Source: Escherichia phage vB_EcoM-G28. Taken from it: a DNA stretch of 64,000 nt. The first letter of the stretch is position 1. The number at the start of each line of letters is the position of its first letter. Positions 31,222-32,277 of this stretch are shown piece by piece. Where the stretch lies: sequence record NC_054916.1; one strand, given 5' to 3'. The position numbers and the translations under genes are program-made. Under the pieces are notes generated by a model. That model searched no databases and had not been told where the DNA came from. It saw only the letters and a list, made by a program, of their open reading frames with translations.

Positions 31222-31718
31222 AAAGTTTTAATAACCTCTATAATATCGTCTTGAGAAAGACCGTTAATTAAAATATGATGTTCAGCTGGAGATTTAGAAA
31301 TTTTAAAGCATGCCTCAACATCTTCTGCCATATCCGATGCACTACGATTTGGATTACTAATTCCAAGACGATGTTTTCCCGTCAAAGGATTAACGATGAT
31401 GTAGCATTTACAGCTATTAATGTGAACATTAGGTTGAGTCTGATTAATGAACACATCACAATCATATTTCGCAAGCTGATTTTCTAAAAAGACTTTCATC
31501 TCCTCAACCGCATCAGGAAGCATATCACGGGCTTGCTCAAGACGACGATTTCGATATTCTTTGATGGTCGTTTTCCGCTTAACTTGCTTAGCTAAATCTT
31601 TCTTAAGATCGGTGATATATCCAACTCGACGATTTCCTTTGAATACAGAAATCCCATCTGTAGTATCACCGTATGCTTCAACGACCATCTCAGTAGTAAT
31701 AAGCTGCAAATCCATCAT
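31212..31718 (-). CDS. alc: Alc (allows late transcription on cytosine DNA / host transcription terminator)
   Basis: 168 aa; synteny between pseT region and rnlA. Confidence 0.8.
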   Translation of the reverse strand: MMDLQLITTEMVVEAYGDTTDGISVFKGNRRVGYITDLKKDLAKQVKRKTTIKEYRNRRLEQARDMLPDAVEEMKVFLENQLAKYDCDVFINQTQPNVHINSCKCYIIVNPLTGKHRLGISNPNRSASDMAEDVEACFKISKSPAEHHILINGLSQDDIIEVIKTLCM

Positions 31719-31746
31719 AAAGTCCTCATGTTATGTCAGTAAGATT

Positions 31747-31776
31747 ATTATAACACAACACGAGGGACTTGTAAAC
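31747..31776 (-). promoter_or_regulatory. Early promoter upstream of alc (-35 GTTTACA, -10 TGTTATAAT)
   Basis: 54-bp sequence identical to the promoter at 16208-16261. Confidence 0.55.
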
Positions 31777-31779
31777 AGC

Positions 31780-31926
31780 TTAGTATCCTTCTGGGATAAA
31801 TTTTTTATAATTTTTCAAAAAATTCTGTTCGATTTCACACATGACCTTCTCTTGACTATCGTATCCTTGGTAGAGGCTCATGATGATACCGAACAGATGT
31901 TCCATTCCAGCACCTTTAGCAACACC
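31780..31926 (-). pseudogene. Duplicated 3' fragment of rnlA (no start codon)
   Basis: Copy of rnlA codons for the C-terminal ~49 aa created by the tandem duplication. Confidence 0.7.
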
Positions 31927-32069
31927 CGCTTAACTTGCTTAGCTAAATCTTTCTTAAGATCGGTGATATATCCAACTCGACGATTTCCTTTGAATACAGA
32001 AATCCCATCTGTAGTATCACCGTATGCTTCAACGACCATCTCAGTAGTAATAAGCTGCAAATCCATCAT
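31878..32069 (-). pseudogene. Truncated alc 5' fragment fused out of frame to rnlA-derived sequence
   Basis: 63-aa ORF whose first 48 codons equal the alc N-terminus; created by the duplication. Confidence 0.7.
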
Positions 32070-32277
32070 AAAGTCCTCATGTTATGTCAGTAAGATTATT
32101 ATAACACAACACGAGGGACTTGTAAACAGCTTAGTATCCTTCTGGGATAAATTTTTTATAATTTTTCAAAAAATTCTGTTCGATTTCACACATGACCTTC
32201 TCTTGACTATCGTATCCTTGGTAGAGGCTCATGATGATACCGAACAGATGTTCCATTCCAGCACCTTTAGCAACACC
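31927..32277. repeat. Tandem direct repeat, copy 2 (351 bp)
   Basis: Identical to 31576-31926; supplies the true 3' end of rnlA and a second promoter plus truncated alc 5' fragment. Confidence 0.9.
32098..32127 (-). promoter_or_regulatory. Second copy of the alc early promoter inside repeat copy 2
   Basis: Identical to 31747-31776. Confidence 0.5.

Follow-up and report, generated by a model that had tools for sequence, protein, structure and literature searches.

A perfect 351-nt tandem repeat across the rnlA–alc boundary of Escherichia phage vB_EcoM-G28 is probably an untrimmed contig-end overlap

The deposited genome of Escherichia phage vB_EcoM-G28 carries two identical, directly adjacent copies of a 351-nt segment that spans the boundary between rnlA and alc, and this repeat is probably an artefact of assembly closure, namely an overlap between the ends of the original contig that remained untrimmed in the deposited sequence. 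The window analysed here, that is, the whole stretch of DNA under study, comprises 64,000 nt of sequence record NC_054916.1, and all coordinates refer to it unless stated otherwise. A first-pass annotation of the same DNA had left open whether the repeat is a real, recent duplication or an assembly artefact. The complete lack of divergence between the copies that it reported is confirmed, and the choice that it left open now leans towards the artefact, which is favoured by a junction found nowhere else, a microhomology no greater than chance and a documented manual rearrangement of the contig.

Anatomy of the repeat and of the genes it divides

Tandem Repeats Finder reports an array at 31575-32277 with a period of 351, 2.0 copies, 100% matches, 0% indels and a score of 1406. 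By direct string comparison, positions 31576-31926 and 31927-32277 are identical at 351/351 positions and lie head-to-tail with no spacer, so that both methods bear out the identity claimed in the first-pass annotation. The identity run at period 351 extends over 352 nt, which leaves a junction microhomology of 1 nt, a single 'C' that the parental breakpoints have in common. The junction context reads AGCAACAC/CCGCTTAAC, where the slash marks the point at which the copies meet, and a 30-mer across it reads CACCTTTAGCAACAC/CCGCTTAACTTGCTT. A perfect repeat of 351 nt cannot originate by chance, and the unit is the sole long perfect repeat that the repeat finder returns within the 64-kb window. 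In each unit, a near-consensus T4 early promoter lies between the final 48 rnlA codons and the opening ~48 codons of alc, and no gene is contained whole; the ORF anatomy and the Pfam matches thereby agree with the earlier description of the unit as the alc 5′ end, a promoter and the rnlA 3′ end. The features of the locus are as follows.

31575..32277, no strand assigned: whole perfect tandem repeat, 2 x 351 nt plus the 1 nt shared 'C' (Tandem Repeats Finder and direct identity run)
31576..31926, no strand assigned: copy 1 of the unit, source of the intact alc 5′ end and its promoter
31927..32277, no strand assigned: copy 2 of the unit, source of the intact rnlA 3′ end
31919..31934, no strand assigned: novel junction AGCAACAC/CCGCTTAA, microhomology 1 nt, absent from all public collections searched
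31212..31718, minus strand: alc (inhibitor of host transcription), intact, 168 aa, start in copy 1; Pfam PF17527 (ALC), E=4e-92, full length
32131..33255, minus strand: rnlA (RNA ligase 1 / gp63), intact, 374 aa, end in copy 2; PF09511 (RNA_lig_T4_1) and PF20819 (T4_Rnl1_C)
31878..32069, minus strand: chimeric ORF made by the junction, 63 aa, Alc residues 1-48 followed by 15 out-of-frame residues from the rnlA 3′ region
31780..31926, minus strand: orphan rnlA 3′ fragment, last 48 codons and stop; T4_Rnl1_C profile positions 83-122
31747..31775, minus strand: early promoter copy 1, TTTACA-17-TATAAT with TG extension, directly upstream of intact alc, 11/12 consensus
32098..32126, minus strand: early promoter copy 2, TTTACA-17-TATAAT with TG extension, upstream of the chimeric alc′ ORF, 11/12 consensus

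The two genes and the two ORFs produced by the junction all lie on the minus strand. Both alc and rnlA are intact, because residue-for-residue identical proteins are encoded in many other Tequatrovirus contigs (Alc on 38 blocks of public contigs, RnlA in many contigs of the genus), and this, together with the full-length Pfam matches, upholds the first-pass assignment of alc to copy 1 and of rnlA to copy 2. The intactness of the pair is no evidence of selection. When the ends of a tandem duplication fall in different genes, each of these genes always retains one intact copy, and a reading of 'both genes intact' as a sign of selection was rejected, since it is a geometric property of every tandem duplication that spans a gene boundary. 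The chimeric alc′ ORF and the orphan piece of rnlA that had been described alongside them are likewise recovered as ORFs with profile matches. The chimera matches the ALC profile at positions 1-49 only and has the same ribosome-binding site and start as alc, while the orphan fragment, read from an internal ATG, corresponds to an ORF of 41 aa at 31780..31905.

The element in each unit has the attributes of a T4 early promoter, with a GTTTAC-type −35 region, a 17-nt spacer, a TATAAT −10 region and an early gene downstream, and a predicted early promoter is annotated at the same site in relatives. As had been proposed for expression of the alc′ fragment, a second copy of this predicted promoter is present upstream of the chimeric ORF, and the duplication is not predicted to create a terminator. 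The '54-bp early promoter/leader' of the first-pass annotation stands as an element and fails as a measure of the gap: the rnlA–alc intergenic spacer is 61 nt, and 54 bp is the part of it that also recurs elsewhere in the genome. This 54-nt promoter and leader (GTTTACA-17-TATAAT ... ATGAGGA) is found at 16208-16261 on the minus strand, 100% identical to 31723-31776 and 32074-32127, where it sits between alt and a 96-aa DUF5498 gene (15910..16200), 15.5 kb from the alc copy. It occurs at two places in most Tequatrovirus records, T4 included (782 places in 466 records), which makes it a conserved dispersed direct repeat. Its dispersal recalls the mobile promoter cassettes described for T4-type phages. 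A looser family of promoter-like sequences with TGTAAAC/GTTTAC motifs, ~70 nt each and 61-77% identical, lies at 25168, 40869, 41589, 58260, 61394 and 62119; these are presumably the T4 early promoters that are dispersed in the genome, together with the A/T tracts upstream of them.

The junction among related phages and documented T-even rearrangements

The locus is matched by ~496-498 Tequatrovirus records and is single-copy in all of the matches listed, where the 1,901-nt query spans 1,550 bp. When a 300-nt junction query is compared with phage records, a single stretch of 351-352 bp takes up both of its halves, one at either end. A shorter junction probe of 50 nt, which can seed a match only where the junction exists, has none among 50,697 phage records, even with a threshold of E ≤ 10. 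Neither exact nor degenerate patterns of the junction were found in IMG/VR, JGI metagenomes or GTDB genomes, and the 63-aa chimera is not on record as an exact protein in any public assembly (153 billion gene positions). The single-copy arrangement is present in 20/20 contigs that encode an identical Alc or RnlA, with an rnlA–alc gap of 61-64 nt, and in all three of the spanin-matched contigs (n = 7) that span the boundary. The contigs compared are relatives of G28, 94-99.5% identical to the window. Exact-protein look-ups with Alc, RnlA, NrdA, Frd and spanin, together with a G28-specific 100-mer, found no independent assembly of G28 or of a near-clone: the NrdA sequence has an exact match in vB_EcoM-G28 only, and the 100-mer is absent from IMG/VR, JGI metagenomes and GTDB genomes. 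Comparison with related genomes had been suggested in the first-pass annotation as a check on the repeat, and it returns the single-copy arrangement in all relatives listed.

As a null for the microhomology, every possible 351-nt tandem duplication was simulated in the collapsed window. The simulated junctions have 0 nt of homology in 51% of cases, 1 nt in 29%, at least 2 nt in 20% and at least 6 nt in 0.3%. The observed 1 nt is at chance level (no more than 1 nt is seen in 80% of the simulated junctions) and lies below all documented T-even ranges. Homologies at T4 amplifications and deletions are 'typically 6-10 bp', and earlier work gives 2-10 bp; UvsX-dependent minihomology joining uses about 3-13 nt, 'as few as 3 to 4'; and the 718-bp tRNA-Tyr/segB repeat of T6 has microhomology at its junction. 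A short flanking homology of about 2-13 nt, kept once at the junction, is the mark of such events, whereas the G28 breakpoints have only 1 nt in common. The junction test favours the artefact by roughly a factor of several and is no proof, as low-homology events may exist.

In its architecture, the G28 repeat is similar to T-even duplications such as those of rII, Hp17 gene 16-18, T4 dmd-tifA and the 718-bp T6 tRNA-Tyr/segB segment, in that a short genomic segment is repeated head-to-tail and the genes at the junction are truncated or chimeric. Apart from the microhomology, two differences separate it from the T-even amplifications. These contain a complete gene that is selected for dosage, often in multiple copies, whereas the G28 unit has no complete gene and exists in two copies; and they have been verified by coverage, PCR ladders or long reads, whereas the G28 repeat is known from the deposited sequence alone. 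A search of the literature for T4 tandem duplications involving alc found no relevant paper.

Two other tandem direct repeats lie in the same 64-kb window. A 472-aa Hoc-like ORF with Ig/PKD-type domains (2377-3795, minus strand) contains a 288-nt tandem repeat at 2938-3225 and 3226-3513 with 76% identity. Two alt-like ADP-ribosyltransferase paralogues of 685 and 698 aa stand in tandem at 16261-18318 and 18322-20418 (minus strand), with segments about 2.1 kb apart that are 78-82% identical, and relatives also annotate two Alt-like genes. The Ig-domain repeat and the alt paralogues are 76-82% identical and also present in relatives, whereas the copies of the 351-nt unit show 0% divergence and occur in one record only. 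Divergence and wider occurrence are expected of genuine evolutionary duplications, and the two older repeats show the form that these take in the G28 genome. The window also holds a mobE-type homing endonuclease gene of 243 aa (34926-35657, minus strand), which is located between nrdA and nrdB and is present only in some relatives. Its segment 35457-35592 is 71% complementary over 136 nt to 6725-6860, an inverted repeat whose other arm falls within ORF 6660..7352, and this suggests that the latter is a second, related endonuclease gene.

Provenance of the record and origin of the repeat

The deposited genome is MG867727 (170,121 bp), the exemplar of the species Tequatrovirus ecomg28, and the proteins near the repeat are those numbered AVH86043-AVH86071 (10/10 exact). 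The spanin is AVH86052 and the mobE product AVH86059, so that six CDSs separate them, against four in relatives (alc, rnlA, denA and nrdB). The two extra numbers imply that the deposit includes annotations for both junction ORFs and that the repeat belongs to the sequence as deposited. According to Korf et al. 2020, G28 was sequenced on a MiSeq (2 x 300 bp), and the single Illumina contig was manually rearranged into T4 order; the text and supplements of that paper give no assembler name, coverage or mention of a duplication, nor do they mention PCR checks.

The end of the window carries a trace of this rearrangement. Its last 11 nt (63990-64000, 'aattttcctta') are nt 1-11 of T4, from the rIIB–rIIA spacer, and the rIIA stop codon starts at nt 12. 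A reading of the window end as uninformative, on the grounds that it lies 11 nt past the last base of T4, was rejected, as those 11 nt are the spacer that ends right before the rIIA stop. The window ends at the base before that stop codon and the record was therefore opened by hand at the rIIA CDS, which points to the window being the final 64 kb of the record and would place the repeat at ~nt 137,696-138,398 of it. Because the contig was re-opened at rIIA, its original ends must have been joined somewhere inside the record. The portion inspected is 64 kb of a 170-kb record, and a trace of the true closure point could lie elsewhere.

An untrimmed overlap would account for the repeat in the following way. 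A T4-type genome is circularly permuted, and its de novo assembly would give one linear contig opened at an arbitrary point, the ends of which can overlap, so that the contig would be longer than 100% of the genome. Cutting this contig at rIIA and joining its original ends would have rendered it co-linear with T4, and an overlap of ~351 bp (about one 300-nt MiSeq read length), if left untrimmed, would have become an internal, perfect head-to-tail repeat at an arbitrary position, here across the rnlA–alc boundary. We infer that the original contig ended exactly at the repeat and that its ends overlapped there. On this account the phage itself would be single-copy, as its relatives all are, and its genome of ~169,770 bp would lack the second promoter, the 63-aa Alc′ chimera and the rnlA′ fragment. 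Untrimmed end overlaps of circularly permuted phages are like the G28 repeat in having perfect copies at an arbitrary position, no homology at the junction and a presence in one record only. In G28, the copies are identical and adjacent, the circularly permuted genome was obtained as one contig and re-opened elsewhere, the junction homology is at random level, and the structure is absent from every independent related sequence.

A real and very recent duplication, be it neutral or adaptive, is a serious but unlikely alternative. In its neutral form, itself rather doubtful, illegitimate recombination or replication slippage would have produced the tandem copies in the sequenced G28 stock, a plaque-purification bottleneck would have fixed them, and the assembly would be correct; alc would then be preceded by tandem early promoters, the 63-aa Alc(1-48) chimera would be translated and the rnlA 3′ remnant would not. 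Tandem duplications and amplifications occur at appreciable rates in T-even phages, and certain illegitimate events may involve hardly any homology or none. A phage with this structure would be viable, with full-length alc and rnlA products identical to the proteins of other phages and no terminator made, and the long genes across the window are all open and intact, as befits an otherwise good assembly. The numbering of the GenBank and RefSeq proteins implies that the two extra CDSs were kept by the depositors and by RefSeq, and a real tandem repeat of 351 bp is one that paired reads of 2 x 300 could, in principle, resolve. The length of the overlap also speaks for a real duplication. De Bruijn assemblers typically leave k-mer-sized overlaps, which for SPAdes-type programs are 127 nt or less, and these are shorter than the 351 nt of G28, so that an untrimmed overlap requires an overlap-type assembler or a read-extension step to be assumed. 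Against these points stand the 1-nt microhomology, where documented T4 and T6 events have 6-10, 2-10 or 3-13 nt, the zero divergence of the copies and the absence of the structure from any other sequence. The repeat should moreover be unstable as a good substrate for homologous recombination in T4, which needs roughly 50-150 nt. Because a 351-nt direct repeat exceeds this need, a real second copy should be lost at an appreciable rate through active collapse, and it would probably come to dominate a stock only if a very recent bottleneck had occurred or selection were at work. The documented manual rejoining, for its part, yields exactly such a signature.

The adaptive form of a real duplication, in which isolating or propagating the phage on its isolation host E. 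coli E28 would have selected for the repeat, is very improbable. Selection could have acted by either of two routes: a doubled early promoter would give more Alc and a faster shut-off of transcription from cytosine-containing host DNA, or the N-terminal 48 residues of Alc, as part of the 63-aa chimera, would be active in their own right and modulate host RNA polymerase separately. Each copy does carry the promoter at 11/12 consensus with its TG extension, the chimera retains the alc ribosome-binding site and start together with ALC profile positions 1-49, and selected amplifications are known in T4 and T6. The known cases hold a complete beneficial gene, usually in many copies, and the two-copy G28 unit holds none; the duplication is in no relative among the matches listed from about 496 records; and Korf et al. 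2020 report no phenotype or selection regime that would favour it. The arguments against a neutral real duplication apply here too. A repeat made after deposition, for example by wrapping the window around a record with overlapping ends, was considered because direct terminal repeats of a contig turn tandem on circularisation, and it is barely credible. Nothing specific speaks in its favour, the window stops at the hand-made end of the record, the repeat lies 31.7 kb from that end, and the numbering from AVH86052 to AVH86059 indicates that two extra CDSs were annotated at the locus in the deposit. An untrimmed overlap of the contig ends, already present at deposition, thus stays the probable origin of the repeat.

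Consequences for the G28 genome and its species

Neither a real duplication nor an artefact opens a long-standing question. If the duplication were real, it would add an ordinary case to the plasticity well known in T-even genomes, unusual only in small ways, through a junction that lacks microhomology and a duplicated early promoter. If it were also adaptive, a T4-like phage would have adapted its regulation quickly by duplicating a promoter or part of a gene, and would have done so without the microhomology that is usual in such events. If the repeat is an artefact of closure, as is probable, the matter is one of curation: 351 bases of MG867727 and of its RefSeq copy would be spurious, the G28 genome would measure ~169,770 bp instead of 170,121 bp, and the exemplar of Tequatrovirus ecomg28 would contain two spurious CDSs, the Alc′ chimera and the RnlA′ fragment, together with a phantom second promoter.
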